A stretch of 64,000 bases of DNA from Candidatus Poribacteria bacterium (lineage in GTDB: Bacteria; Poribacteria; WGA-4E; WGA-3G): NCBI GenBank assembly GCA_003635185.1, contig PYJA01000119.1, positions 2,115-66,114 on the forward strand. The letters are read 5' to 3'. Below the pieces are notes generated by a model. The model saw nothing but the letters and a program-made list of their open reading frames with translations. It searched no databases and was not told the DNA's origin. The stretch's first letter is position 1. The number at the start of each line of letters is the position of its first letter. Positions 1,947 through 48,984 of the stretch are shown in pieces. Both the position numbers and the translations under genes were made by a program.

Positions 1947-3248
1947 ATGCGTATACTTGAAGGGTTAAATGTTGGAATTACTGCAATTCGTATCAACAAG
2001 ATGCGTTCGCTGCTGACGATGCTTGGAATCATCATCGGTGTCGCCTCTGTGCTTGCCATGATTTCGATTGGCGATGGTGCTAAAGAAATTGTGTTACGTG
2101 ATGCCCAAAAACTCGGTGGAGCAAACCAGTTTACTATCTACCGCACATGGTATAAACGGGTAGGCACACAATGGGTCCGAATCCGTAGCAATGAGTACAT
2201 GAAGTACGGAGATGTGTTGGCAATTGAAGCGGAATGCCCCTCTGTGAAAGCTGTGACTCCACGGATCCCAGAGTGGAGAGGTGCGTTAATTGAAGCTGCA
2301 AGAGGTGTGCAAACTCGTGCAGGCTATAATGGCGTAGATGCCACCTATAAAACTGCAATGGATTGGGATATTCAAGAGGGCCGGTTTATTACAGACGAGG
2401 ATGTGGAAAATGCATCGTCCGTTTGTGTGCTTGGAGATGAGGTGGCGGCATCTCTGTTCGGCGACAAATCCCCTCTGGGACAGGAAATAAAAATTGCAAG
2501 AGGCGATGGACGTTATGACCGATGGGGACGAAGGGACAAGAAGCGGTACACAGAACGTTTTACGGTTGTAGGCACGATGAAACCGAGAGGCAGAAGTCTT
2601 CGATTCGGATGGAGTTATGATAACCTCGTCTTTATGCCGTTAACAACTACTCAGAAACGTTTTACTGGTAATGATAGGGTTCAGGATATTGTCGTCTATG
2701 CAAACACTGTTGAAGATGTACCGAAGGCGATTGAAGAGGTAAAAGCAGTTATCCGTAAGCGGCATAAAAACCAAGACGACTTCATCAGAATCTTTGATAT
2801 GCGTGAAGGCATGGCACAGCTGGAGAAGATCAGTAGGGTGATAAAAATAGCGTTGGGGAGTATTGCTGGTTTTTCGCTGCTCGTTGGCGGCATCGGTATA
2901 ATGAACATGATGCTTGTCGCTGTCACGGAACGGACACGTGAGATAGGGCTTCGGAAAGCGCTCGGTGCAACACGGTTTGACATCCTAATTCAATTCTTAA
3001 TGGAGGCTGTTGTGATGTGCGGTTTAGGCGGGTTGATAGGCATAGCTTTGGGGGTCTTTGCTGGACAAGGTATGGCACTTCTCGCTGTCAAGATCGCAAA
3101 AATTGTGCCTGAATGGCCTTCAGTTGTTTCAACGGAATGGGTGTTAATTTCTATATCCTTTTCAGCGTTGATTGGTATCTCATTTGGGTTGTATCCTGCG
3201 ATAAAAGCATCTTCACTTTCGCCTATTGAAGCATTGCGTACTGATTAA
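1947..3248 (+). CDS. ABC-type efflux permease, MacB/FtsX family (no ATPase domain), paralogue 1
   Basis: 433 aa. N-terminal TM helix (LLTMLGIIIGVASVLAMISIGDGA), then a large periplasmic domain, then a C-terminal FtsX-type 3-TM bundle with the ERTREIGLRKALGA motif. Confidence 0.85.
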   Translation: MRILEGLNVGITAIRINKMRSLLTMLGIIIGVASVLAMISIGDGAKEIVLRDAQKLGGANQFTIYRTWYKRVGTQWVRIRSNEYMKYGDVLAIEAECPSVKAVTPRIPEWRGALIEAARGVQTRAGYNGVDATYKTAMDWDIQEGRFITDEDVENASSVCVLGDEVAASLFGDKSPLGQEIKIARGDGRYDRWGRRDKKRYTERFTVVGTMKPRGRSLRFGWSYDNLVFMPLTTTQKRFTGNDRVQDIVVYANTVEDVPKAIEEVKAVIRKRHKNQDDFIRIFDMREGMAQLEKISRVIKIALGSIAGFSLLVGGIGIMNMMLVAVTERTREIGLRKALGATRFDILIQFLMEAVVMCGLGGLIGIALGVFAGQGMALLAVKIAKIVPEWPSVVSTEWVLISISFSALIGISFGLYPAIKASSLSPIEALRTD

Positions 3249-3250
3249 AT

Positions 3251-3994
3251 CTATTCCCCGGGCATTCCATTATAAGTGCGTCCGTCTAATTCTCTTCCTG
3301 TTTTTGATTTACGTGTGCCGCCCCACTGCTTAAAGAAAAAGGGCACTCCATCTCTTTTACACTGATCTCGGATTTCAACAACCCATTTCTTTTTCATTTC
3401 GCGTGCGCCAGGGCCAGACTCTCCACCCACGATCACCCAATCTATACCGCTCAACTCCAAATCTGGTAGAGGACCAATAAGCGGTTCAAGCGAAAGGAAT
3501 TTAATTTTTGCATCCGTTTGACGTAGATCGTCAATCCGATCCATCACGCGACTATCTTCAACACTAACCCCCATCCAAACGTTTGAAGGCCACGGCAACT
3601 TCGGGCTAAATTCCAGCATCCGTGATGCCCGCTTCGTCAATATTTGGAATTGATGCCAATTCGCCTCCTTCATAACAGAAAAGACTTCTTGTATAAAATC
3701 CAATTTGATTTTTTCGTGAAACAGATCACTCATGGAGTTAACGAAAATTCTACGTGGTTTTTTCCATTTTAATGGCTCATTAAGCAGCGTGTAAACAGGG
3801 CGTACTTTTCTTGTCCATTGTGGACCTGCTTTTGTGTTTTCTGCTAACCCTTCGTAAGCCATGCCTGGACCAGAAAATCTTGCTGCAATGCGTTCGGCAT
3901 AACAGAAGCGGCAGCCTTCAGATACACGGGTGCAGCCGCGTACGGGGTTCCACGTAGATTCAGTCCACTCAATACTTGAGGATAGGGTTGCCAT
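3251..3994 (-). CDS. DUF5131 / phage Gp37-Gp68 family protein (three-Cys motif)
   Basis: 247 aa. The N-terminal signature IEWTESTWNPVRGCTRVSEGCRFCYAE (Cx6Cx2C) is characteristic of the Gp37/Gp68 family. The stop is convergent with, and 2 nt from, the permease stop. Confidence 0.8.
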   Translation of the reverse strand: MATLSSSIEWTESTWNPVRGCTRVSEGCRFCYAERIAARFSGPGMAYEGLAENTKAGPQWTRKVRPVYTLLNEPLKWKKPRRIFVNSMSDLFHEKIKLDFIQEVFSVMKEANWHQFQILTKRASRMLEFSPKLPWPSNVWMGVSVEDSRVMDRIDDLRQTDAKIKFLSLEPLIGPLPDLELSGIDWVIVGGESGPGAREMKKKWVVEIRDQCKRDGVPFFFKQWGGTRKSKTGRELDGRTYNGMPGE

Positions 3995-4064
3995 TCATTT
4001 GTCTCCTATAGAAACTCATATATTCATTTATGATTTTGAAAACTACTTTTCAGTTTATGTAAGA

Positions 4065-4958
4065 TTATGACGGATCTAAAATATGTTGCGCTATTCTGAC
4101 CGCTGTTTGAGCACCACGTGGATTTCCTGCTGCAAAACACAACAGGTACAATGGAACATTCTTTGAATTGCGTAGAGAAAGCGGATTTGTTGCTACTCCA
4201 GCAAAGATTCCCTGTAGTCGTTTTATAAAGTATTGTTCAATTTCTGTAAATATATTACCTACTTTTTCCCATCGTTCCTCTTCACCAAATAGTGAATTTT
4301 CATGAGCCAGTTTGTAGAATATCTCATACCAATCTTCTTCACCAAAAAACTTGTATAGTTTTTCTCGAATAGCCTCACGGATTTCAGCATCCCTTTTTAG
4401 CAATCTATTGACGGTACCAATTGGGAAAAGCAACCATAAATCAATTGCTTTTGTGTCTGCAATTAATTTAATTGTTTCCCATTCCACCTGCATACCAAAA
4501 GGATCAAGAAATACTAATGCCCGATGTCGTTCCCAATTCTTATTACAAACATCAGTCAAATATTCATTTGCCTCTGTGAGTATACACTCAATACTATCTT
4601 TTGAGAACTCATCCTTGGGCAAAAATTCATCCCTGAGCTTCTCTAATTCGGAAAAATTATTCTTATCTTGTTCTATGAAAATATATTTTTTAAACGGTGG
4701 TTGGACTTCCAGAGCATTACGGGCAGAACCTTGTCGAAAGTTAACTACTTCTTGAGTGTCAAGTTCTGGAAACAGTGCCTCATTTGAGTCTTCATCAAGC
4801 ATAACTTCACGGTAACCAGTCCCTGCAAAGGCATCTATGTAAGCAAATTCAAATTGCTGTCTATTCATAATCGTTGTGTAAGCTTGAAGATATTTTCGCA
4901 CACAGTCCAACTTTTGCTCTGTCCAGTCTCCACCAAACGTTTGGCCAATATTATTCAT
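4065..4958 (-). CDS. tcmP: three-Cys-motif partner protein TcmP-like (methyltransferase-like)
   Basis: The ORF runs to 4970 (TTG), but ATG at 4958 is directly preceded by GGGAGAGGAA. Features: GGDWTEQKLDCVRKYLQAY N-terminus, SAM-motif-I-like YIDAFAGTGY, RsmD-like VFLDPFG. It lies 70 nt upstream of the DUF5131 gene on the same strand. Confidence 0.7.
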   Translation of the reverse strand: MNNIGQTFGGDWTEQKLDCVRKYLQAYTTIMNRQQFEFAYIDAFAGTGYREVMLDEDSNEALFPELDTQEVVNFRQGSARNALEVQPPFKKYIFIEQDKNNFSELEKLRDEFLPKDEFSKDSIECILTEANEYLTDVCNKNWERHRALVFLDPFGMQVEWETIKLIADTKAIDLWLLFPIGTVNRLLKRDAEIREAIREKLYKFFGEEDWYEIFYKLAHENSLFGEEERWEKVGNIFTEIEQYFIKRLQGIFAGVATNPLSLRNSKNVPLYLLCFAAGNPRGAQTAVRIAQHILDPS

Positions 4959-5000
4959 TTCCTCTCCCAATTTAAGTTAAACAGATTATCACCATACAAC

Positions 5001-5029
5001 ATTATACCTATTTAGTTAGATTTTGTCAA
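5001..5029 (-). promoter_or_regulatory. consensus sigma-70 promoter for the tcmP-DUF5131 cassette
   Basis: On the minus strand, TTGACA (5029-5024), a 17-nt spacer and TATAAT (5006-5001). This is about 40 nt upstream of the tcmP start. Confidence 0.65.
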
Positions 5030-5036
5030 ATAAGTT

Positions 5037-5213
5037 TATAACGACTTGTGCCAGTTAACTAATTGTTTTTGTAATTTTCACAGATATTAGGTGTTATCAT
5101 ATAAACATATCGTCCCTACGGACTGAAGAGCATATCAACCAATAGGAAACACGGACAAAACGTTTCGCTTATGTGAAATAACATTTTACATTAGGTTATT
5201 TAGCACAACTCGT
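5037..5213 (+). repeat. intergenic repeat family A (copy 1)
   Basis: About 177 bp, near-identical to 24829-25055. It contains the core tataaacatatcgtccctacgg(g)actgaagag with an internal gtccc-tac-gggac hairpin. Confidence 0.85.
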
Positions 5214-5426
5214 GTTTATAGATAATCCGTTCATTATTTTTACAATAAACCCATTTCCCAATTTTGACGTCAAAAAAGAGTAATTACATTCCAAAAAACT
5301 GTTAGCAAATTAAGGAAGGAGTTTGTACTGCCATCTTTTCTCAATTGTCCGAACCTTATCTGCTTTTTTCTGTCTAAATTACAAGGTATAAAAGGTTAAT
5401 CTTTTGAAAGTCTTTGGAGACAAGAG

Positions 5427-6728
5427 ATGCGTATATTTGAGGGGTTATCCGTTGGGATTTCAGCAATTCGCAGCAACAAACTACGATCATTGCTGACGAT
5501 GCTCGGTATTATCATCGGGGTTGCCTCTGTGCTTGCGATGATCTCAATCGGTGACGGAGCTAAGGAAATTGTGCTACAAGACGCACAAAAATTAGGTGGC
5601 GTCAACCAATTCACAATGTACCGCAGCAGTTACAGGCGTGTCGGTAGGCGTTGGATGCCGAACCGTAGCAACGAATACTTCAAGTACGAAGACGTATTAG
5701 CGATTGAAGCAGAATGCCCATCCGTAAAGGTAGTTGTTCCCCGAATTCCGGAATGGCGGGGTGTCCAAATTCAAACTAAAGATGGGTCTGAAACTCGCAG
5801 CGGTTATAACGGTGTGAACGCCTCATTTTCGGAAGCGATGGACTGGGGAATTCAGGAAGGACGTTTTATTTCCGATGAGGATATTGAAAACAAAGCGAAA
5901 GTTTGTGTTTTAGGAACTGAGGTCGCACTTAACCTATTTGGTAACAAATCTCCAATAAACCAAGAAATCAAAATCGGTAGAGGAGGCGGTAGATTTGATA
6001 GATACGGCAGAGGGGATCAGGTCCGGATCGCTGAACGTTTTACTGTCGTAGGAACGATGATGCCGCGGGGTAGAAGCCTTAGATTCGGATGGAACTTAGA
6101 CGATATGGTGTTTCTGCCGCTAACAACTGCGCAAGAACGTTTTACCGGTAACGATCATATTGTCATGTTATCGGTTCAAGCCAACACCGTTGACGATGTG
6201 CCGAAAGCAATAGAAGAGGTGAAAGAAGTAATGAGAAAACGCCACAAGAATCAAGATGACTTCTTTGACCTTAGAGATATGCGCGAAGGTATGGCACAGT
6301 TAGATAAAATCAGTAGAGTGATAAAAATAGCGTTGGGGAGCATTGCTGGTTTTTCTCTGCTTATTGGTGGTATCGGTATAATGAACATGATGTTGGTCGC
6401 TGTTAGTGAACGCACACGTGAAATCGGTCTGCGGAAGGCACTCGGAGCGAAACGTTTAGATATTATGCTACAGTTCTTGATTGAGTCCATTGTGATGTGT
6501 GTTATAGGCGGGGTTTTAGGTATTGGGTTAGGTTATCTTGCAGGTGAAGGTATGGCACTTCTCGCTGTGAAGATCGTCAAGATGGTGCCAGATTGGCCCT
6601 CAGTTATCTCTATGCAGTGGGTTATTATTTCGGTTTCATTTTCTGCGTTGATAGGTATCTCTTTTGGACTCTATCCTGCGCTAAAAGCGTCCGCACTTTC
6701 CCCGATAGAAGCACTGCGCACTGAGTAG
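5427..6728 (+). CDS. ABC-type efflux permease, MacB/FtsX family, paralogue 2
   Basis: 433 aa. Collinear with 1947-3248 without indels, and identical over long runs (LLTMLGIIIGVASVLAMISIGDGAKEIVL, DMREGMAQL.KISRVIKIALGSIAGFSLL). Confidence 0.85.
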   Translation: MRIFEGLSVGISAIRSNKLRSLLTMLGIIIGVASVLAMISIGDGAKEIVLQDAQKLGGVNQFTMYRSSYRRVGRRWMPNRSNEYFKYEDVLAIEAECPSVKVVVPRIPEWRGVQIQTKDGSETRSGYNGVNASFSEAMDWGIQEGRFISDEDIENKAKVCVLGTEVALNLFGNKSPINQEIKIGRGGGRFDRYGRGDQVRIAERFTVVGTMMPRGRSLRFGWNLDDMVFLPLTTAQERFTGNDHIVMLSVQANTVDDVPKAIEEVKEVMRKRHKNQDDFFDLRDMREGMAQLDKISRVIKIALGSIAGFSLLIGGIGIMNMMLVAVSERTREIGLRKALGAKRLDIMLQFLIESIVMCVIGGVLGIGLGYLAGEGMALLAVKIVKMVPDWPSVISMQWVIISVSFSALIGISFGLYPALKASALSPIEALRTE

Positions 6729-6741
6729 GGGATATTAAAAA

Positions 6742-8058
6742 ATGAATCTATTTGAATGTATCATTTTAGGCATTACCAGTTTGCGGCGGAACCCATTACG
6801 TTCAAGTCTGACAATTTTAGGTATTATTGTCGGCGTAGGTTCAGTCGTCAGTATGGTCTCTGTTGGTGATGGGTCTTCTGCTATGGTGCTACGCGAGATT
6901 GAGCGGACAGGCGGTACAAAGATCATTGAAATCTATCGTGATGATTGGGATAAGCAGTCTGGCACGTTAAGTCGGGCAGCGGGTGAAGCCGTCAGGGGCA
7001 GGAGTCGTTGGCGTAGGAACCGTGCGGAGCATTTGGAAACAGATGATGTTTATGAAATTATAAAGGGTGCCCGCCGTATCGTTGACGCTGTGGGAGAAGA
7101 TGATATGCCCGGTTGGAGTGTCAGTTACAAAGGACGGAAGAAAGAATCCCGAATTGTGGCATCAACAGCAGGATATGATCGTTCTCATAACTGGTACACG
7201 TCAAGCGGTAGATTTTTCAACCCTGAAGAGGTAGAAGCTGCCAGCAGCGTTGCTGTAATCGGCTCAAAAATTGCAGAAGAGGTGTTTTTGAACGAAGACC
7301 CCGTTGGAAAAGAGATAAAAGCTTCACGTCCTTCTTATTGGCGCGGTAGGAGTGGCTTGTATGAGGTCCGCCTTAGAGTTATCGGTGTGATGGAAGAGAA
7401 AGGTGATGCAATGGATACAACTGGCTGGGATGACAGGTTTATCATTCCGATAACGACACTTCAAGACCGTTTCAAGGGGCGCCAAGATATTGAACGGATT
7501 CGCGTTGAAGCAGTGGAGGTAGATGATATTCCACAAGTAATTGCAGATGCAAAGCATATCTTAGGCAGAATACACAATAACACAGGTGAGGAATATAACT
7601 ATTGGACTGCCGAGGAGGAATTGGCTACTGCCGGTAAAGTCGGTTTGGTCATGAAAGCGTTGATGGGGGGTATCGCGGGTATCGCATTAATGGTTGCTGG
7701 TATCGGTGTGATGAATATTATGCTCGTATCTGTAACTGACCGCACGAAAGAAATTGGTTTGCGGAAAGCACTGGGTGCAACCTTCAATGATATCATCACC
7801 CAATTCCTGATTGAAGCATCTGTCCTCACCTTAGTGGGAGGAATTTTGGGCTCAATCTTAGGGGTATTTATGGGGCAAGGTACAGCTGCTCTCATTTCCA
7901 GGTTTGTGTGGGAAGGCAGCAATTGGCCCTCAGTGATTTCATTTGAGACAATGTTTATTGCGTTGCTTGTATCTGTCGCTATTGGTGTTTTCTTTGGGCT
8001 TTATCCCGCCCATAAGGCGGCAAAACTTACGCCTGTTGAAGCACTTAGAACTGATTAG
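6742..8058 (+). CDS. ABC-type efflux permease, MacB/FtsX family, paralogue 3 (divergent)
   Basis: 438 aa. Same architecture (N-terminal TM, periplasmic domain, DRTKEIGLRKALGA FtsX motif). Starts 13 nt after paralogue 2. Confidence 0.85.
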   Translation: MNLFECIILGITSLRRNPLRSSLTILGIIVGVGSVVSMVSVGDGSSAMVLREIERTGGTKIIEIYRDDWDKQSGTLSRAAGEAVRGRSRWRRNRAEHLETDDVYEIIKGARRIVDAVGEDDMPGWSVSYKGRKKESRIVASTAGYDRSHNWYTSSGRFFNPEEVEAASSVAVIGSKIAEEVFLNEDPVGKEIKASRPSYWRGRSGLYEVRLRVIGVMEEKGDAMDTTGWDDRFIIPITTLQDRFKGRQDIERIRVEAVEVDDIPQVIADAKHILGRIHNNTGEEYNYWTAEEELATAGKVGLVMKALMGGIAGIALMVAGIGVMNIMLVSVTDRTKEIGLRKALGATFNDIITQFLIEASVLTLVGGILGSILGVFMGQGTAALISRFVWEGSNWPSVISFETMFIALLVSVAIGVFFGLYPAHKAAKLTPVEALRTD

Positions 8059-8180
8059 ATCGTTATAAATGGTTAAACACACGGACAGGTAGGATTATAG
8101 ATTTCAGACCACTTACTTTTAAGAAGTGTCCGTTTGTCATATATGGTAGATTTTAGAATTAAGTTAAACACGGTTAAAAC

Positions 8181-8309: not shown

Positions 8310-10193
8310 TTGAAAAAGTTAATTATTACTGTTGCTATCATTGTCGTTTTGATTGGGGCAGTAGGATGGGTTGTACTCAGTCGTAACAAAAACGGAGTTG
8401 ATCCAGCTCTTGCTCCCAAAATTGAGCTCGTCAAACTTGGTGATTTCCGAATGACCATTAGAGCTACCGGCAATTTAGAACCACTTATTGACGTAGAAGT
8501 GAAATCTAACGTTGAAGGGGAAGTAATTGATCTCCTTGTTAAAGATGGTGATCCCGTTGAAGCAGGCGATATTTTGGTAAAACTTGACCCCAAAATATAT
8601 CAAGAGGACCAGAAGCAGGCTGAGGCGGATGTTAAGGCTGCTGAGGCGCAGCAGATGCAGGCGAAATTAAATATTGAACTAAAGAAAGAACGGTTGAACA
8701 GTAATCTTACACAGAAAGAAGCTGCTGTGAGAAGCGCTAAGGCAAATCTTGAAACAACCAAAGCGGAATCGTTGACACGGATAAGCTCCGCTGAAACCGA
8801 CATTCAAGCCACAAAGAATTCATTAGACCAAGATAAGATTGCTTTAGAACAAGCAAATATTTCACTTGAGCAAGCGAATTTAACACTTTCAGAATATGAA
8901 ACGTCGCTTACGTCTACAAAGGTTGCTTTAGACACTGCCAAATCAGAATTTGAAAGAAATAAATCTCTCTTTGAAGAAGAACTGGTTTCCAAAAAGACGT
9001 TGGAAGACGCAGAATCTCGGCATGCCAGTGCAGACTCACAATACAAAAATGCTAATAAACGGGTAGAATCACAGAAACAAACTATCAAATCACAAGAACG
9101 CACTGTTCTGGCACGTAAAACAGCTATTAAGACGCGTGAAGCACAGTTGCAATTACAAGAATTAAACCTTGAACACCTCAAAAAGACGCGTGAAAAGGCA
9201 GAAGAAGAGAGCCAAATTCGTTTGGATAATGCTGGAACACAGTTAAAGGAGCTTCAGTTAACAATTGACAATGAGAAATTGCTAACAGAGCAATCCAAAG
9301 TCAGTTCTGATGCCAATCTCCTTCGTAGGCAAAGTAGTCTGAAGAATCAGGTGGAACGGCTTGGTTGGACGGTTATTAAGGCACCTATGTCTGGCACCGT
9401 TACACAACTTGAGATAGAACAGGGAGAGATTGTAACGTCTGGACGGTCGGCTTTTTCGCAAAGTCCTCCGATTATGACGATTGCAGATCTATCGAAAATG
9501 GTTGTCAAAACCTTTATCAACGAAGTTGATATGGAACGTCTTGAAGAGGGGCAAGCTGCAGATATCAAGATTGATGCTTTCCAAACAAAAAGATTTAAAG
9601 GTAATGTGTACGAGATTTCCCAAAGCGGTCAACAACAAGATAACATTATCTCGTTTGAGGTGATGATAGAGGTTGATGATACATCGGGGGACATCCGCCC
9701 CGGTATGAGTGCTGATGTTGACATCATTACGTACGAAGAAAAGAATGTCTTGCTGATCCCTATTGACGCTGTAATAAACAAGAATTCTGCTACCGTTACC
9801 GCCCAAGTGGGTAATACGTCTCCCTTCAAGGTAGGCAAATCGGTGCAAATGCAGACCCTTAGCGAGAAAATATTCAATGGAACTGTGCAATCTGTTGGAA
9901 ATGGAAGCGTTACAATTGACTTAAATCCTGCGCAACGCGGTATTGTTCCTGGTGATGCAACTGTTTCGCTTTTAATCAATGATCAAAAGAAGGCTGACGG
10001 TGTTTCGGCACAAGTAAATGTTTCAAGAGGGAAGTTTGTGATGTTGGACAGTGATGGCGGCAAAGGTGTTGAAACTGCTATTGAAACCGGCATGCAAAAC
10101 GAAACGGTTGTCATCGTCAAAAGTGGAATCACTGAAGGCGACCGAGTTATTTTACAACGCAGACAAAGACCACAGGGAGGATGGGGAAGATAG
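8310..10193 (+). CDS. efflux periplasmic adaptor (HlyD/MacA-type membrane fusion protein) with very long coiled-coil hairpin
   Basis: 627 aa. TTG start after AGGAGG. N-terminal TM anchor, lipoyl-like motifs (VEGEVIDLLVKDGDPVEAGDILVKLD; IKAPMSGTVTQLEIEQGEIV), and about 250 aa of heptad-rich Q/E/K/A sequence between them. Confidence 0.8.
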   Translation: MKKLIITVAIIVVLIGAVGWVVLSRNKNGVDPALAPKIELVKLGDFRMTIRATGNLEPLIDVEVKSNVEGEVIDLLVKDGDPVEAGDILVKLDPKIYQEDQKQAEADVKAAEAQQMQAKLNIELKKERLNSNLTQKEAAVRSAKANLETTKAESLTRISSAETDIQATKNSLDQDKIALEQANISLEQANLTLSEYETSLTSTKVALDTAKSEFERNKSLFEEELVSKKTLEDAESRHASADSQYKNANKRVESQKQTIKSQERTVLARKTAIKTREAQLQLQELNLEHLKKTREKAEEESQIRLDNAGTQLKELQLTIDNEKLLTEQSKVSSDANLLRRQSSLKNQVERLGWTVIKAPMSGTVTQLEIEQGEIVTSGRSAFSQSPPIMTIADLSKMVVKTFINEVDMERLEEGQAADIKIDAFQTKRFKGNVYEISQSGQQQDNIISFEVMIEVDDTSGDIRPGMSADVDIITYEEKNVLLIPIDAVINKNSATVTAQVGNTSPFKVGKSVQMQTLSEKIFNGTVQSVGNGSVTIDLNPAQRGIVPGDATVSLLINDQKKADGVSAQVNVSRGKFVMLDSDGGKGVETAIETGMQNETVVIVKSGITEGDRVILQRRQRPQGGWGR

Positions 10194-24828: not shown

Positions 24829-25055
24829 ATAACGACTTGTGCCAGTTAACTAATTGTTTTTGTTGTTTTCACAAATATTAGGTATTGTCATATAAACATA
24901 TCGTCCCTACGGGACTAAAGAGGGCGTTTATTTCCATTTTCTATAAACATATCGTCCCTACGGGACTGAAGAGCATATCAACAATAGGAAACACGGACAA
25001 AACGTTACGCTTATGTGAAATAATATTTTTCCAAAAGTTATTTAGCACAACTCGT
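24829..25055 (+). repeat. intergenic repeat family A (copy 2, with 51-bp internal duplication)
   Basis: Collinear with 5037-5213. The core tataaacatatcgtccctacgggact(a/g)aagag occurs twice (24891-24922, 24942-24973). Confidence 0.85.
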
Positions 25056-25106
25056 TATAATACTAAAATCTACTATATATACATTCCCTTGGAGTTAAGT
25101 AAGAAA

Positions 25107-26261
25107 ATGAAAAGAAATTTGCAATTCTCATGCAGTCGGATCCATCGACTACAGTATTTAAAAACCTCGTTGTTGGTTTGCCTATTCTACCTTGTTTTTT
25201 GCTTTTCTATTTCGAATGGAATTGCAGCAGAAGCAACTACAACAGCAGAAGCAGACAGGTTTCTTAAACAGTTGATCGGTGCTGAACATCACGGAATGGG
25301 GGGTAGTTTTGTTGGGGCAACCGATGGCGCAAACGCCCTTGGTAACAACCCTGCTGGGATCGGTATTGCTAAGGGAAACCGATTTGTAATTCACATGGCA
25401 CGTTTTCCACGTACCGTTGCCCTCCTTTCTAAACCAAATTTCAACGCAAACTACGAGGATTATAGTCAGTATGAACAGCGTGCTGCTGGTATTGAAACAT
25501 TGAATTGGGCATTTCCAATAGGTAGGTTCGGTACTATAGGTGTCGCTCTATCCACAGCACATGAAGGCTCCTTTCGCCGCGTCAACCACGAAGGAAAAGC
25601 ACTCAATAGTTTTCCAGAAAATAACCTTGCTATCGGGATCGGTTACGGTTTAAATTTTGGGGGAAACACTGTTGTCGGATTTGATGCAAAATGGTTGCGG
25701 TCTAAGGTTACTGACACTTTGGGTACCGAGCATTTCGGACGGGGTTACGCCTATAATGTCGGACTTATTCAGAAATTTGGAAACGCACTTCAAGCAGGCA
25801 TTGTCGTCCGTAATTTAAGTAATGGATTGTCGTTTGTTGATCCCACTATTCCAGATAAAATCCGCCGCGATGTTATTGCGGGTATAACTTATCAACGCGA
25901 AATTTCAAACATGTCTTTACGGCTCGGATTTGATTTACACCCGCCTTTTCGTGATGGCATCCGAGCGAACCTTGGTGCCGAAGTTTGGTTTCGCAACCGC
26001 ATTGGGGGTAGAATCGGATATCTCAGGGATACTGAAAAGCGTTACGCCTCGGCTTTTCTTTTAGAAGATGCTACGTTTGAAATGGAGGAGCGAAATTGGA
26101 AAGCAGAAGGGCTCTGCTTCGGATTTGGTGCACGGTTCGGAAACATTACACTAAATGCCGCTTATACCCCTCAATTCAAGCCGAGTGTATCTGCGGATGA
26201 ACGCATTCACATCGTCCAAGGCACCGCTGTCTATACCTTTTCAATTGGACAGGATTTTTAA
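25107..26261 (+). CDS. outer-membrane beta-barrel protein (PorV/UPF0164/FadL-like)
   Basis: ATG 25107 lies after GGAG (25091). Signal peptide (LLVCLFYLVFCFSISNGIAA). GMGGSFVGATDGANALGNNPAGIG motif, alternating beta-strand pattern, aromatic C-terminus (VYTFSIGQDF). The upstream 74 codons of the ORF run through repeat A and are rejected. Confidence 0.6.
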   Translation: MKRNLQFSCSRIHRLQYLKTSLLVCLFYLVFCFSISNGIAAEATTTAEADRFLKQLIGAEHHGMGGSFVGATDGANALGNNPAGIGIAKGNRFVIHMARFPRTVALLSKPNFNANYEDYSQYEQRAAGIETLNWAFPIGRFGTIGVALSTAHEGSFRRVNHEGKALNSFPENNLAIGIGYGLNFGGNTVVGFDAKWLRSKVTDTLGTEHFGRGYAYNVGLIQKFGNALQAGIVVRNLSNGLSFVDPTIPDKIRRDVIAGITYQREISNMSLRLGFDLHPPFRDGIRANLGAEVWFRNRIGGRIGYLRDTEKRYASAFLLEDATFEMEERNWKAEGLCFGFGARFGNITLNAAYTPQFKPSVSADERIHIVQGTAVYTFSIGQDF

Positions 26262-34686: not shown

Positions 34687-34789
34687 ATCACAGAATCTTT
34701 AGTCCCGCTGAATGCCAAAAGCGCATTCATAGCGTTGATTTGGTAGGGACGATATGTTTATAAAAAAACGTTGTCCCGTCACTTAAGCC

Positions 34790-38300: not shown

Positions 38301-38655
38301 CAGGGTTATTTAGTTTTAAGAGTTTTCCGTTATTGAGTTGGACTCAAAGTTAATGCCCCAGGCCGGTAGATGCGGTTTCTAACCGCACCATAGCCGTCAA
38401 TTTAGGGATAAATGCGTTGTGGCAGTGTCTTCAGTCCCGTCCGGACGATATGTTTATAGAAAAAATGTTGTCCTCCCCCTCTTGAATCTATAAACATATC
38501 GTCCCTACGGGACTAAATATGGGACAAGCTCAATGATAATAGGTACTGAACCATATTTAAAAATGCAATCGTTTTCTTAAATTGACACCTACCGGCCTGG
38601 GGTATATAGCAGGTATAAAAAATTCGTCCGAAAAACCGAAAACTAAATAACCCTG
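38301..38655. repeat. nested inverted-repeat mosaic (three concentric IR pairs)
   Basis: IR1 is 38301-38317 with 38639-38655 (cagggttatttagttttt type). IR2 is 38356-38369 with 38589-38602 (ccccaggccggtag). IR3 is the family A core, 38429-38460 with 38487-38518. Confidence 0.8.
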
Positions 38656-46044: not shown

Positions 46045-48984
46045 ATGAAAAACAATGACATGCAATTAATCCACCGGACTCTTGATGGCGATGATGCTGC
46101 TTTCGCGGAACTTGTCCAAAAATATCAAAAACAGGTTCACGCGCTTGTGTGGCGGAAAATCGGAGATTTTCACATAGCCGAAGAGATTACACAGGATACA
46201 TTTCTGAAAGCATATCAGAAATTAAGCACGCTTAAGAAACCGCAGCGTTTTGCAAGTTGGCTTTATGTAATTGCAGCGAACCGTTGCAACATGTGGTTAC
46301 GTAAAAAGCATTTGCGTAAGCAGTTGTTAGCGGACAAGGACGTTGCACAACCCGAAAAAGCGAGCTATTCTGAGTATGTGCATGAAGAAAACGAGCGTAT
46401 ATCTGGAGAAGCACAACGCGATGTTGTCAAGAAACTGCTTGCGAAGCTTAGGGAAAGTGAACGCACCGTGGTGACGTTGCATTACTTCGGAGAAATGTCG
46501 TGTACAGAGATAGGCGCGTTTTTAGGTATATCCGCAAATACGGTGAAGAGTAGACTTCGCCGCGCACAGCAGCGTTTAAAAAGAGAGGAAATAATGATAA
46601 GAGAGGCTTTAGACAATTTCAAAATCTCACCAAATTTGACAGAAACCATCATGCGTGAGATTTCTCGGACCAAACCTGCTACACCGTCCGGCAGTAAACC
46701 GTTAGTGCCGTGGGCAGTAACTGCTTCTACGGTAGCAGTGGTGTTGCTCATGCTCGGTTTTGGAAATAGCAAATACTTGACTCGTTTTCAGAAACCTTAC
46801 AGTTTAAATGCCACCGCAGAGATAACGGTTGAGATCGTTGATGCGCCTATAGTCGCGAACTTAGAATCTAAGCCAATTGTGCGGAGGCAAATCGTAAGTG
46901 CTAACGCACTGGATAAGCTCAATAATCCTGAACAGCAACCGAATGATGCCTCGGAATATGATGAGTCAATTATAGATACTGCCCTTGATCTTGATGGAAG
47001 TTTAAGTTGTGTAGAAATCAAGGACAGTGAAACTTTAAACAATATTACGGAACAGTTGACGGTGTCGTTATGGATTAGACCGACCAGTACCCCAAACAGA
47101 TACGCTACTATTTTATCCAAAAGCGATCTGTGGGAAGACCGTATCACACATAGAAGTTTCATCATGTATTATAAAGAAAGTGGTTCAATCCAATTTGCTG
47201 CATCTCCCGACGGCGTAGGAGAAGCATCCCTTTATTCTCCATATAGCGTCATCAAACATAACACATGGACGCATGTGGCGGGAGTTATTGACGCAGAAAA
47301 GAATTACATGAAACTTTATATTGATGGAGTTGAAGTCAGTAGCAGAGATTTTAAATGGATTAAAAAGATTTATAAAAGCCATCTCCCACTACGTATTGGG
47401 TGGTCGCATGAAAATAGGCCTGCTCAGTCTCCTTTTGTCGGACAAATTGACGACGTGCGTATCTGGAACATTGCACGCTCTGATGCTGACATCCGAAAGG
47501 ATATGATCACCGAACTTAAGGGTGATGAACCCGGTTTAGTTGGCTATTGGAAATTTAACAAAATAACAGACGGAATCATCTCGGATATGTCACCAAATCG
47601 TAATGATGGTAGACTGGTAGGCAATCCAAAACTGACTGAATACATCCGTCCAGCTTCTGCCTTGACCGGTGAGGAGCAACTTGCAAAAGCAGCAGTTGCA
47701 TATCAAAAACTACTTTCTGATGGGACAAACTATTATGAAGCGTTCCGCTATCTTGCCGAAATATATATCAAAACCGAGCGTTTCGCGGATGCAGAAAAGG
47801 TCTATTTACGTGCATTAGAGGTAGACCTCACACAAAGCGAACAAAACGATGCAATTAGTGACCTCTGGAAACTATACGCTAAGAGAGATGCAATAGAGGA
47901 ATTCATTGCGCTCCTTGAAGAACTGAAACCAAGAATGGAAGGAAGTTCCGCTCTACACGAACTATTAGGTGATGCTTACATAGATGTTGGTGAAAAAGAC
48001 AAAGCTGAACTTGCTTATACACAGTGGATTAACATCCGAATAAAAGAGGTTGACGTACAAAATCGTTCAGCTGCATATCGCAATCTTGCTGAAGAACTGC
48101 TTAGGAAAAATCTATTTCCTGAAAAAGCGTTGGAATTGGCAGAAAACGCTTTCAATATGTTATCGGGGACAAAGTATAAGATTACTCTTGCACATGCATT
48201 TCTCGTGAATGAGATGTATGAAAACGCTTTCCAACGCATCCATAGTTTTCTAAACTCGGGATATTATGAATATACAGAGCGAGACATGTTCGCAAGGATT
48301 GTTAAAGCAGGAAAAAATATCAAAGACGAAGACGGATATGTCGAAATGTTAAACAATCTAATTGATGTTTCTGAATTAGATCTTCCTGCACAATTAAATG
48401 CCATCATGGCTTTAGCCCAATTCTATAAAGCAAATAACCAGCATGAAAAAGCTGATGCACTTATGCAAAAAACAGGTTTTATGACTGAAGATGCATGGAT
48501 GATTCTCGGGCCATTCGATAACCATGGCAGAATTGGCTTTAATACAGAATACATCCCAGAAAACTTACCGCAGATTGATACCACCGTAAAATACGATGGG
48601 AAAAATGGACAAGTCCGTTGGCAAAAATGTCCCGATGATTTCATAGACGGTTATATCCGGACTCTACCTAACGTTAATTGGAGTGTTGCTTATGCTTTCG
48701 CAACTATTCATTCTCCAGACGAACGGAAAGTTGAATTACGTTTTGACTCCGATGACCAAGGTAAAGTATGGGTAAACGGTATACAGGTGCATGCACATAC
48801 AAGAACTTATGCCACAGATATTGATAGAGACATTATTCCTGTGACGCTCTTTCCAGGAAACAATAGTATCCTCATCAAGGTGTGTGAAGAAACCAGAGGT
48901 TCGGGATTTTACCTGCGAATCACTGACGAAAATGGAAAACCTTTTGATGATTTAGTATTTTCTAATTCAGCTGGGGAACGCTAA
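46045..48984 (+). CDS. ECF-type sigma factor fused to TM helix, LamG, TPR and beta-jelly-roll domains
   Basis: 979 aa. Sigma region 2 (FAELVQKYQKQVHALVWRKIGDFHIAEEITQDTFLKAY..WLYVIAANRCNMWLRKK). Region 4 (RTVVTLHYFGEMSCTEIGAFLGISANTVKSRLRRAQQRLK). TM helix at aa 219-239. LamG motif (LYIDGVEV...FVGQIDDVRIWN). TPR-like helical repeats. C-terminal beta-sandwich. Confidence 0.8.
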   Translation: MKNNDMQLIHRTLDGDDAAFAELVQKYQKQVHALVWRKIGDFHIAEEITQDTFLKAYQKLSTLKKPQRFASWLYVIAANRCNMWLRKKHLRKQLLADKDVAQPEKASYSEYVHEENERISGEAQRDVVKKLLAKLRESERTVVTLHYFGEMSCTEIGAFLGISANTVKSRLRRAQQRLKREEIMIREALDNFKISPNLTETIMREISRTKPATPSGSKPLVPWAVTASTVAVVLLMLGFGNSKYLTRFQKPYSLNATAEITVEIVDAPIVANLESKPIVRRQIVSANALDKLNNPEQQPNDASEYDESIIDTALDLDGSLSCVEIKDSETLNNITEQLTVSLWIRPTSTPNRYATILSKSDLWEDRITHRSFIMYYKESGSIQFAASPDGVGEASLYSPYSVIKHNTWTHVAGVIDAEKNYMKLYIDGVEVSSRDFKWIKKIYKSHLPLRIGWSHENRPAQSPFVGQIDDVRIWNIARSDADIRKDMITELKGDEPGLVGYWKFNKITDGIISDMSPNRNDGRLVGNPKLTEYIRPASALTGEEQLAKAAVAYQKLLSDGTNYYEAFRYLAEIYIKTERFADAEKVYLRALEVDLTQSEQNDAISDLWKLYAKRDAIEEFIALLEELKPRMEGSSALHELLGDAYIDVGEKDKAELAYTQWINIRIKEVDVQNRSAAYRNLAEELLRKNLFPEKALELAENAFNMLSGTKYKITLAHAFLVNEMYENAFQRIHSFLNSGYYEYTERDMFARIVKAGKNIKDEDGYVEMLNNLIDVSELDLPAQLNAIMALAQFYKANNQHEKADALMQKTGFMTEDAWMILGPFDNHGRIGFNTEYIPENLPQIDTTVKYDGKNGQVRWQKCPDDFIDGYIRTLPNVNWSVAYAFATIHSPDERKVELRFDSDDQGKVWVNGIQVHAHTRTYATDIDRDIIPVTLFPGNNSILIKVCEETRGSGFYLRITDENGKPFDDLVFSNSAGER

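Follow-up and report, generated by a model that had tools for sequence, protein, structure and literature searches.

A two-gene cassette lies on the minus strand of the 64-kb stretch of Candidatus Poribacteria DNA analyzed here (the whole stretch is referred to as the window): tcmP, encoding a three-Cys-motif partner protein, followed by a gene encoding a DUF5131 (Gp37/Gp68) protein that resembles radical S-adenosylmethionine (SAM) enzymes. The original prediction, made from the letters of the window, had described an opposite-strand two-gene unit with specific sequence motifs and a perfect TTGACA-17-TATAAT promoter at 5029-5001. Both were recovered: the open reading frames (ORFs) 3251-3994(-) and 4065-4970(-) carry IDAFAGTG, FLDPFG and WNPVRGCTRVSEGCRFCYAE, and the promoter matches the consensus at 12/12 positions and is conserved in related loci. 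Within TcmP the motifs read YIDAFAGTGY and VFLDPFGMQ, and WNPVRGCTRVSEGCRFCYAE is present in the DUF5131 ORF. In order of transcription, the cassette is composed of the following features.

5029-5001, minus strand: predicted sigma-70-type cassette promoter, TTGACA-17-TATAAT
4959-5000, minus strand: conserved 5' leader, from the upstream-of-tcmP alignment of nine loci
4065-4958, minus strand: tcmP, three-Cys-motif partner protein, 297 amino acids from the ATG at 4958
3995-4064, minus strand: spacer between the two genes, 70 nucleotides (nt) long and AT-rich, in which an AGGAGA ribosome-binding site precedes the ATG of the DUF5131 gene
3251-3994, minus strand: DUF5131 (Gp37/Gp68) gene, 247 amino acids, predicted non-canonical Cx6Cx2C radical-SAM-like enzyme

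The tcmP gene could alternatively start at a TTG at 4970, giving the 301-residue ORF 4065-4970(-); the ATG at 4958, which is preceded by the ribosome-binding site GGGAGAGGA in the leader (4960-4968, minus strand), is the likelier start. Promoter-like sites were not in excess in the 2.6-kb region (7 found vs 7.0 expected). Across nine aligned sequences from the clade in which the cassette sits within an array of permease genes, as it does in the window, the -35 box does not vary, the -10 box reads TATAAT except in L009 (TATACT), the ribosome-binding site is conserved as well, and the promoter is kept in all related permease-array loci, even where the surrounding DNA is unalignable. Because of this conservation, we consider the cassette promoter to be more than a chance match. 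A similar promoter, AATTAACTTGACA-N17/18-TATAAT, was found 50-60 nt before the tcmP ATG in nine Poribacteria loci belonging to two other contexts, namely after an ATP-binding cassette (ABC) operon and in a restriction-modification (R-M)-rich region; it was absent upstream of tcmP in the divergent Poribacteria loci L016 and L058 and in the six loci from other phyla that we examined. As promoter, leader and both genes recur in three Poribacteria contexts, they appear to have been inherited and relocated as one unit, and the comparison shows them to form a self-contained predicted transcription unit.

The leader contains a TTAA-N-TTAA palindrome (TTAACTTAA, 4972-4980, minus strand) that is conserved across the permease-array clade, and we infer that the leader has a regulatory role. 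An Rfam search over 3000-5600, leader included, returned no credible family. A CTAAC(A/T)AAA element in the promoter spacer (5007-5023, minus strand) recurs in all three Poribacteria contexts; this element and the leader palindrome could be candidate operators for some regulator. At the other end of tcmP, the window differs from its closest relative, which has a 12-nt spacer (L004, 10860-10945) and a longer TcmP tail; the C-terminal tail of the window protein is shorter and ends in ...AQHILDPS. These differences in tail and spacer indicate a local rearrangement at the tcmP 3' end (window 3995-4100).

To place the pair among known families, we compared both proteins with curated and defense-related profiles. 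The pair corresponds to TIGR04474 plus PF07505, with the DUF5131 gene 70 nt downstream of tcmP on the same strand. TcmP matched TIGR04474 at 209.5 bits (cutoff 53), covering 260/263 profile positions, and the PADLOC model PDC-M41A almost end to end (E 1.5e-114). The DUF5131 protein matched PF07505 (E 2.4e-97, 325.7 bits, gathering threshold 28.9) over positions 2-243 of 243, as well as PDC-M41B (E 3.5e-110), PDC-M30B (5e-105) and phrog_2045. Both component models of the PADLOC candidate PDC-M41 therefore match adjacent genes in the window, an assignment made by models and adjacency, not by PADLOC system rules. The PDC candidates come from a "guilt-by-embedding" survey (Payne et al., bioRxiv 10.1101/2024.01.29.577857). 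No functional assignment for DUF5131, TcmP, PDC-M41 or PDC-M30 came up in full-text literature searches, and exact-sequence look-ups of the window DUF5131 protein, permease paralogue 1 and P0004 found no record. The original prediction was thus right to call this a recurrent, known pair with no assigned function. It had also proposed the pair as a candidate uncharacterized system; the function is indeed unassigned, but the candidacy is not new, as the pair is already listed as PDC-M41. The window holds another member of a catalogued, uncharacterized pair, not a new kind of system.

We examined the DUF5131 protein by conservation and by structure prediction. Among 126 homologues (39-92% identity), the cysteines of C21-x6-C28-x2-C31 are 100% conserved, and a dense polar core is conserved alongside them. 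The PDB, searched by sequence and by profile, yielded noise only for both TcmP and DUF5131, with no solved relative detectable by sequence. The AlphaFold2 model of DUF5131 (predicted local distance difference test score, pLDDT, 77) had spore photoproduct lyase as its best PDB match, although this match was weak (E 2e-3, template modeling (TM) score 0.41-0.44); the next fold matches were the partial TIM barrels of lipoyl synthase, NifB and MiaB, interspersed with TIM barrels of a generic kind. In RadicalSAM.org, DUF5131 is listed as the radical-SAM subgroup Megacluster-5-2, beside spore photoproduct lyase at 5-3 (PMC9477430).

The window TcmP has no Pfam match, and 46 relatives gave a few weak ones: to the RsmD family in 8/46 (best E 1.6e-4), to TRM in 2/46 and to RlmJ in 1/46. 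Its AlphaFold2 model (pLDDT 68) shows a class-I Rossmann methyltransferase fold with an extra N-terminal helix and a C-terminal helical region. The best Foldseek matches in the PDB were Trm1 (3axs, E 1.7e-5) and RlmJ/DUF519 (2oo3, E 2.4e-5), with TM scores of about 0.4, and further matches included TYW4, spermidine synthases, RsmD and many other methyltransferases; a BFVD fold search with TcmP found only generic methyltransferase folds. Ten residues (K16, Y23, D42, G46, G48, D152, P153, R185, G206 and W210) are invariant across 78 members of the family, down to 21% identity. In the same 78 sequences, motif I, D42-A-F-A-G46-T-G48 in the window (D-x-F-A-G-x-G in the family), and the D152-P153 of motif IV are invariant, and the third and fourth positions of motif IV are F/Y/C and G/A, not the P-Y of (D/N)-P-P-(Y/F). 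Trm1 also has D-P-F-G at this motif.

Two ideas about TcmP were abandoned. A single hypervariable target-recognition segment was dropped, as variation is spread over positions 51-70, 96-145 and 186-245. P0241, a 552-residue protein of the representative library considered as a TcmP-DUF5131 fusion, proved to be a head-to-tail TcmP duplication, and being a tandem TcmP it provides no Rosetta-stone evidence. In P0241, D-P-C-A replaces D-P-F-G; the duplication may be genuine or may have arisen in assembly.

Next, we characterized the linkage of the two genes in other genomes. At least 540 genome loci encode a TcmP relative, and gene order was counted in the best 80. In 65 of these 80 loci, drawn from more than 12 phyla, tcmP precedes a co-directional DUF5131 gene, the median gap between the two being 3 nt. 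In 8 loci, mostly cyanobacterial, the adjacent gene encodes not DUF5131 but a radical-SAM protein with the canonical Cx3Cx2C motif, of the PA0069/Rv2578c (SplB-like) type, a swap which suggests that TcmP needs a radical-SAM partner of this superfamily branch. All IMG/VR viral contigs with a TcmP relative (58/58) have an adjacent DUF5131 gene, mostly convergent and overlapping. In Gordonia phage Fairfaxidum, gp43 (TIGR04474, 109 bits) is convergent with gp42, a DUF5131 protein, between the integrase and the immunity repressor. We had at one point concluded that phages carry DUF5131 without TcmP (tblastn found TcmP in 2/181 phage records); this was withdrawn, as the Gordonia partner is a divergent TIGR04474 member.

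The neighbors of the pair outside Poribacteria include restriction and defense genes. Five loci from different phyla have the order Res-like helicase (about 1000 amino acids), TcmP, DUF5131; a Type III Mod methylase (PADLOC MTase_III 9e-274) follows, either immediately or one gene later (L024/L045). Res and Mod both flank the pair in L023, L029, L030, L045 and L048, while L021 and L024 have one flank each. The pair was also found behind HmaA-B-C (two loci), behind a DrmD-like SNF2 (DISARM-like) helicase (one locus), before a Type III restriction enzyme (one locus), and among CfrBI, Type ISP and Eco57I R-M genes (one 5.3-Mb genome, TcmP 67% identical). TcmP and its canonical radical-SAM partner lie beside BREX-1 on a Nostoc plasmid, and in S. 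meliloti a TcmP gene adjoins the validated defense gene hna and is co-regulated with it. Judged by these gene neighborhoods, the defense link of the pair in other lineages appears to be real.

The window itself looks different. No known defense genes were found among the neighbors of the pair, which are MacB permeases, an HlyD adaptor and a prenyltransferase-like protein. PADLOC matched only single components in the 64 kb, and those identified are homologues of DinG, DnaG and MutS2, which look like housekeeping genes, and the possibility of a defense island in the window was accordingly rejected. No Res or Mod gene flanks the window pair, and no Type III R-M component was matched anywhere in the window. 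The suggestion of the original prediction that this is a defense or phage-interaction module is therefore supported by the contexts in other lineages but not by the window, where no recognized defense system was seen.

Our preferred reading, to which we give about an even chance, is that TcmP and DUF5131 act as the two SAM-dependent enzymes of a module for nucleic-acid modification, probably with a role related to defense. TcmP, with a class-I methyltransferase fold of the exocyclic-amine type (Trm1-, RlmJ- and RsmD-like), would probably bind SAM and select or flip the target base. The invariant Cx6Cx2C motif of DUF5131 would probably carry a [4Fe-4S] cluster, and the enzyme would generate a 5'-deoxyadenosyl radical by SAM cleavage. 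Its radical reaction would be on the same DNA or RNA as that bound by TcmP, in the way that the spore photoproduct lyase branch, to which DUF5131 appears related, acts on DNA. Going by the contexts found elsewhere, the role could be a self-marking modification or interference with phage nucleic acid. A precedent is gp53 of phage M6, a lyase-like radical-SAM isomerase that acts in thymidine hypermodification (PMC8989533).

A bolder version of this reading, which we hold tentatively and at well below even confidence, is that the pair writes a chemically new, radical-derived DNA or RNA base modification used by bacteria and prophages for self-marking or phage blocking. In it, TcmP would be the fast-diversifying selector and the radical-SAM partner (DUF5131 or SplB-like) the conserved catalyst, and in Poribacteria the pair would have become a resident, phylum-wide function.

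The structural neighbors of TcmP also bear on a different substrate. The pair could be a tRNA or rRNA modification pair, either housekeeping or acting as a PrrC-style abortive-infection toxin that stops translation when neighboring restriction is inhibited. The top structural neighbors Trm1, RlmJ, TYW4 and RsmD point this way, as do the weak Pfam matches of the relatives. Moreover, the PDC candidates rest on embedding, and RNA can be the target of systems that lie within R-M loci, as with PrrC. We nonetheless consider an RNA-modifying pair unlikely: the radical-SAM partner belongs to the DNA-acting, lyase-like branch, the co-operonic Type III Mod and Res and the Hma proteins act on DNA, and no RNA-binding domains (THUMP, PUA, S4) were detected with Pfam in the window TcmP or its relatives.

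The resemblance of TcmP to small-molecule methyltransferases and spermidine synthase raises a further alternative, in which the radical-SAM enzyme would, like viperin, turn a free nucleotide into an antiviral one (a signal or a chain terminator) and TcmP would methylate either the starting nucleotide or the one produced. Radical-SAM enzymes are established defense effectors, viperin and Ophion being examples. This alternative is quite improbable in our view, since the pair has no viperin similarity and no nucleotide kinase or phosphoribosyltransferase partner, DUF5131 groups with a DNA-repair-like branch of the superfamily, and the invariant D-P of TcmP motif IV is typical of amino-methyltransferases that act on nucleic-acid bases.

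We then traced the history of the locus in related genomes. The closest genome is the Candidatus Poribacteria chromosome OZ244889.1 (5.24 Mb), with a TcmP 96% identical to that of the window. The pair occupies the same position, antisense between MacB permease paralogues, in at least 8 related loci (L001, L002/L004, L003, L005, L006, L007, L008 and L009, from five Poribacteria species genomes and three further contigs), among which TcmP identity to the window falls to about 72%. Where enough flank was available (L004, L005, L007 and L009), four permeases (P) are present in the order P, P, (DUF5131, TcmP), P, P438, adaptor, and the nucleotide alignment of the window with its relatives is collinear across 1947-5037 and 5215-8141. 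Against five relatives, the ratio of nonsynonymous to synonymous substitution rates (dN/dS) was 0.08-0.17 in tcmP, 0.06-0.10 in the DUF5131 gene and 0.02-0.06 in the permeases. The dS of the DUF5131 gene tracks that of the flanking genes and exceeds 1 in more distant relatives (up to 1-2), where it is equally saturated. The low dN/dS, and dS values in step with the flanks, indicate that both cassette genes are functional and have diverged together with their neighbors.

The tcmP gene is nonetheless compositionally odd. Its GC content at third codon positions is persistently low, at 0.25-0.32 vs 0.30-0.44 for the DUF5131 gene and the permeases (window, L001, L004-L007 and L009), an oddity that has not been ameliorated despite long residence. 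Its dS vs the closest relatives is also 2-3 times below that of its neighbors (0.17 vs 0.45-0.49).

In sister-clade Poribacteria (L149 and L150), the array is uninterrupted (MacB433-434-433-438-adaptor, with the adaptor 65-68% identical) and has the same flanks: upstream lies a prenyltransferase-like gene, and downstream lie genes for metallo-beta-lactamase-fold, GNAT and DegT proteins. The sister-clade genome PCPOR4 has its pair on a different contig (L012), where it follows an ABC ATPase and two permeases of ~12 transmembrane segments. An uninterrupted sister array with the same synteny indicates that the cassette was inserted into the array in an ancestor of the clade to which the window belongs. 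These comparisons show the insertion, as reconstructed from the sequences, to be ancient and the cassette to have been vertically inherited since then under purifying selection; its boundaries could not be mapped to the base, as the outgroup spacers do not align. DUF5131 identity is 76-92% across the three Poribacteria contexts, 61-71% for the divergent L016 and L058, and 51-67% for other phyla. As DUF5131 proteins are closer within Poribacteria than to other phyla, the cassette probably came from a source within the phylum.

These results bear on the evolutionary claims of the original prediction. It had proposed checking whether the permeases are adjacent to each other in related genomes, which they are in L149 and L150. 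Insertion, as part of its claim of horizontal acquisition, held; a reading of the acquisition as recent did not, given the presence of the pair in at least 8 loci with saturated dS. The reverse scenario, in which the pair is a vertically conserved operon partner of the permeases, is correct as to the conserved position in these loci, yet the pair lies on the opposite strand and is no permease operon partner.

Elsewhere in the phylum, the two partners have evolved at different rates. L011 and L017 share 62% identity in TcmP and 92% in DUF5131, and L010 and L056 share 59% and 91%, respectively. Across L010, L011, L017, L026 and L056, DUF5131 is 83-92% identical where TcmP is only 58-64% identical. 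The faster divergence of TcmP suggests diversification or swapping of this component; it fits a diversifying specificity partner, without being proof of one.

Vertical inheritance brings in a housekeeping role in DNA repair, in which the lyase-like radical-SAM protein would reverse a lesion, TcmP would recognize the lesion or flip the base, and the pair would be kept as generally useful. In favor of this idea, spore photoproduct lyase heads the structural matches of DUF5131, an SplB-like protein serves as the alternative TcmP partner, and the pair shows vertical descent across the phylum, strong purifying selection and no defense neighbors in the window; its strong consensus promoter is also apparently constitutive. 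However, embedding between Type III-like Res and Mod, after Hma, or in a prophage immunity region would be unexpected for a repair enzyme. The intact SAM loop and D-P motif of TcmP suggest catalysis, not mere lesion recognition, and a diversifying specificity component fits better with a TcmP that diverges much faster than DUF5131. We regard repair as rather unlikely overall, though it ranks first among the alternatives, ahead of RNA modification, an antiviral small molecule and a transporter-linked product, in that order.

The surroundings of the cassette comprise an efflux gene array and a miniature inverted-repeat transposable element (MITE), as follows.

1947-3248, plus strand: permease paralogue 1, MacB-type (MacB_PCD + FtsX, by Pfam), 433 amino acids
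5041-5213, no strand assigned: MITE with 11-bp terminal inverted repeats and a 7-bp target-site duplication; 5034-5220 with the duplication
5427-6728, plus strand: permease paralogue 2 (MacB_PCD + FtsX, by Pfam), 433 amino acids
6742-8058, plus strand: permease 3 (MacB_PCD + FtsX, by Pfam)
8310-10193, plus strand: HlyD-type periplasmic adaptor, by Pfam

Permease 1 is convergent with the DUF5131 gene, their stop codons being 2 nt apart, and is the ortholog of the second permease in the four-permease array of the relatives. Permeases 1 and 2 had been described as collinear proteins of 433 residues each, which an ungapped alignment bears out, and the spacings given for the array (13 nt between permeases 2 and 3, and about 2.2 kb, here 2178 nt, between permeases 1 and 2) were accurate. 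The description of the two as near-identical was not: they share 76% protein identity over the 433 ungapped residues, and at the DNA level the figure is about 72%. Between permeases 2 and 3, identity is only 37%. The relatives have a fourth, outermost MacB permease (L002 12259-13560; L001 5094-6395) between the prenyltransferase-like gene and permease 1; it is missing from the window, where that interval holds a 155-residue ORF (1334-1801).

The pair is found beside ABC exporters in a second setting as well. In a second Poribacteria clade (L011, L012, L015, L017, L019 and L026), it lies on the same strand behind an ABC ATPase and two paralogous permeases (~520 amino acids, 10-12 transmembrane segments), with a gap to the ABC operon of 64-96 nt (687 nt in L011). 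The presence of the pair beside ABC exporters in two unrelated Poribacteria contexts may be a coincidence or a functional link. In L144 and L145 (3948-8741), DUF5131 is directly behind the ABC ATPase and two permeases with a 56-nt gap and without tcmP between, a natural TcmP-less variant; L144 is a 10.96-Mb contig, and the identical locus L145 is on a 182-kb contig from a second sample.

Adjacency to exporters raises the idea that the pair matures a peptide or other exported product, in the manner of a peptide made by ribosomes and modified after translation (RiPP), with the neighboring ABC exporters moving it. The two contexts, the MacB array and the ABC operon (about six species), are the evidence in favor. 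Against it, the window pair has a promoter of its own and is encoded on the opposite strand, the ancestral array functions without the pair, no precursor-peptide ORF was found inside the cassette in the ORF list or the sequence, and outside Poribacteria the neighbors are restriction and defense genes, not transporters. The similar promoter before tcmP across the Poribacteria contexts (L016 and L058 excepted) likewise marks the pair as an independent unit. We saw no evidence of a functional link between the pair and the flanking efflux genes, although no test was aimed at one, and we judge a transporter-linked or RiPP-like role highly improbable given the opposite strand, the promoter and the missing precursor.

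The MITE corresponds to a repeat that the original prediction had called family A and described as mobile-looking. That description holds: its terminal inverted repeats, ACGACTTGTGC and ACGAGTTGTGC, match at 10/11 positions, and the target-site duplication GTTTATA is present at 5034-5040 and 5214-5220. It took no part in acquisition of the cassette, as L001, L002 and L003 have an empty site (window 5038-5214 missing). Its absence from the same site in three relatives marks the MITE insertion, 5 bp upstream of the cassette -35 box, as a later, independent event outside the cassette. We found no match to the MITE in the phage collection or in 150 fetched loci. A second copy in the window (24832-25055, 224 nt) is flanked by the 7-bp duplication TATAATA, contains an internal duplication of ~30 nt with a small GTCCCTACGGGAC hairpin, and overlaps the start of a 458-residue ORF (24885-26261) that has no Pfam match. 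The 20-30-nt hairpin core also occurs alone, as short fragments, at 38428-38510 and 34743-34762. Elsewhere in the window, 46045-48984(+) encodes a 979-residue protein with extracytoplasmic function (ECF) sigma-70 regions 2 and 4, tetratricopeptide (TPR) repeats and a Laminin_G_3/concanavalin-like domain, an unusual fusion.

Several of these observations weigh against a defense-related nucleic-acid modification module. At the level of the proteins, the DUF5131 motif is Cx6Cx2C and not the canonical Cx3Cx2C, DUF5131 has no match to Pfam Radical_SAM (PF04055) at E <= 1e-3, and the fold matches are weak for models of such modest pLDDT. With RNA and small-molecule methyltransferases as the nearest folds to TcmP, RNA or a metabolite could be the substrate, and one Poribacteria-like genome has DUF5131 without TcmP. 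At the level of the genome, the window copy is solitary and outside any defense island, in a stretch where no recognized defense system was seen, and PDC-M41 is among 145 phage-defense candidates described as untested (10.1101/2024.01.29.577857). Long vertical retention at fixed loci, with DUF5131 76-92% identical across most of the Poribacteria examined, is unusual for defense genes and fits a housekeeping role just as well.

Both families are large: TcmP forms about 4,300 clusters at 50% identity and DUF5131 at least 8,000 at 90%, and DUF5131 is present in 181 phage genome records. If this pairing of a methyltransferase-like protein with a non-canonical radical-SAM enzyme, which recurs inside restriction and other defense operons, is a new modification system or defense effector, it would bring new chemistry to phage-host conflict. 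The window provides a clean natural experiment in this respect, a promoter-equipped cassette for which the insertion site, the empty site, the age and the selection can be read from relatives, and it indicates that the pair can persist for long outside any defense island.

Finally, we compared the cassette with known systems. The individual proteins each resemble enzymes from which they also differ. TcmP shares with Trm1, RlmJ and RsmD the class-I fold and appears to share the D-x-F-A-G-x-G SAM loop and the D-P-[F/Y]-G motif IV, but it falls below the family thresholds, has extra helices and has an obligate radical-SAM gene partner. DUF5131 is in the same Megacluster-5 as spore photoproduct lyase and the SplB-like PA0069/Rv2578c proteins, the lyase is its best fold match, and SplB-like proteins stand in for it as the TcmP partner in 8 loci; it differs in its cysteine spacing (Cx6Cx2C vs Cx3Cx2C), its length (247 amino acids vs 340), the missing Radical_SAM match and a TM score of about 0.4. 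Phage M6 gp53 is likewise a lyase-like radical-SAM enzyme that acts on DNA base modification, but it has the canonical motif and works with a kinase, a glycinyl-transferase and a PLP (pyridoxal phosphate)-enzyme on 5-hydroxymethyldeoxyuridine (5-hmdU), none of which is encoded in the cassette. Radical-SAM "mobile pair" A/B (TIGR04471/TIGR04470) is similar in that DUF5131 weakly matches pair-A (87.5 bits) and the alternative partner weakly matches pair-B; neither score comes near its equivalog cutoff (355 and 410), which marks it as another system.

The PADLOC and TIGRFAM gene pairs were compared in the same way. The window DUF5131 matches PDC-M30B of the PADLOC PDC-M30/actinobacteriophage pair, whose phage gp43 is a TIGR04474 member, but the phage partner has 398 amino acids, the window TcmP matches PDC-M30A only weakly (about 5e-10), and the phage genes are convergent and overlapping in a prophage immunity region whereas the window genes are co-directional. 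Both window proteins match PDC-M41 near end to end and are adjacent on the same strand; the difference is one of setting, in that the candidates were defined from copies inside Hma, BREX, DISARM or Type I R-M systems whereas the window copy is alone in a permease array. For the TIGR04474/PF07505 pair, the window scores far above both curated cutoffs, with the adjacency and the three-Cys motif present. There is no structural difference from this pair; what the window copy contributes is a consensus promoter that is conserved and a long record of vertical descent in Poribacteria.

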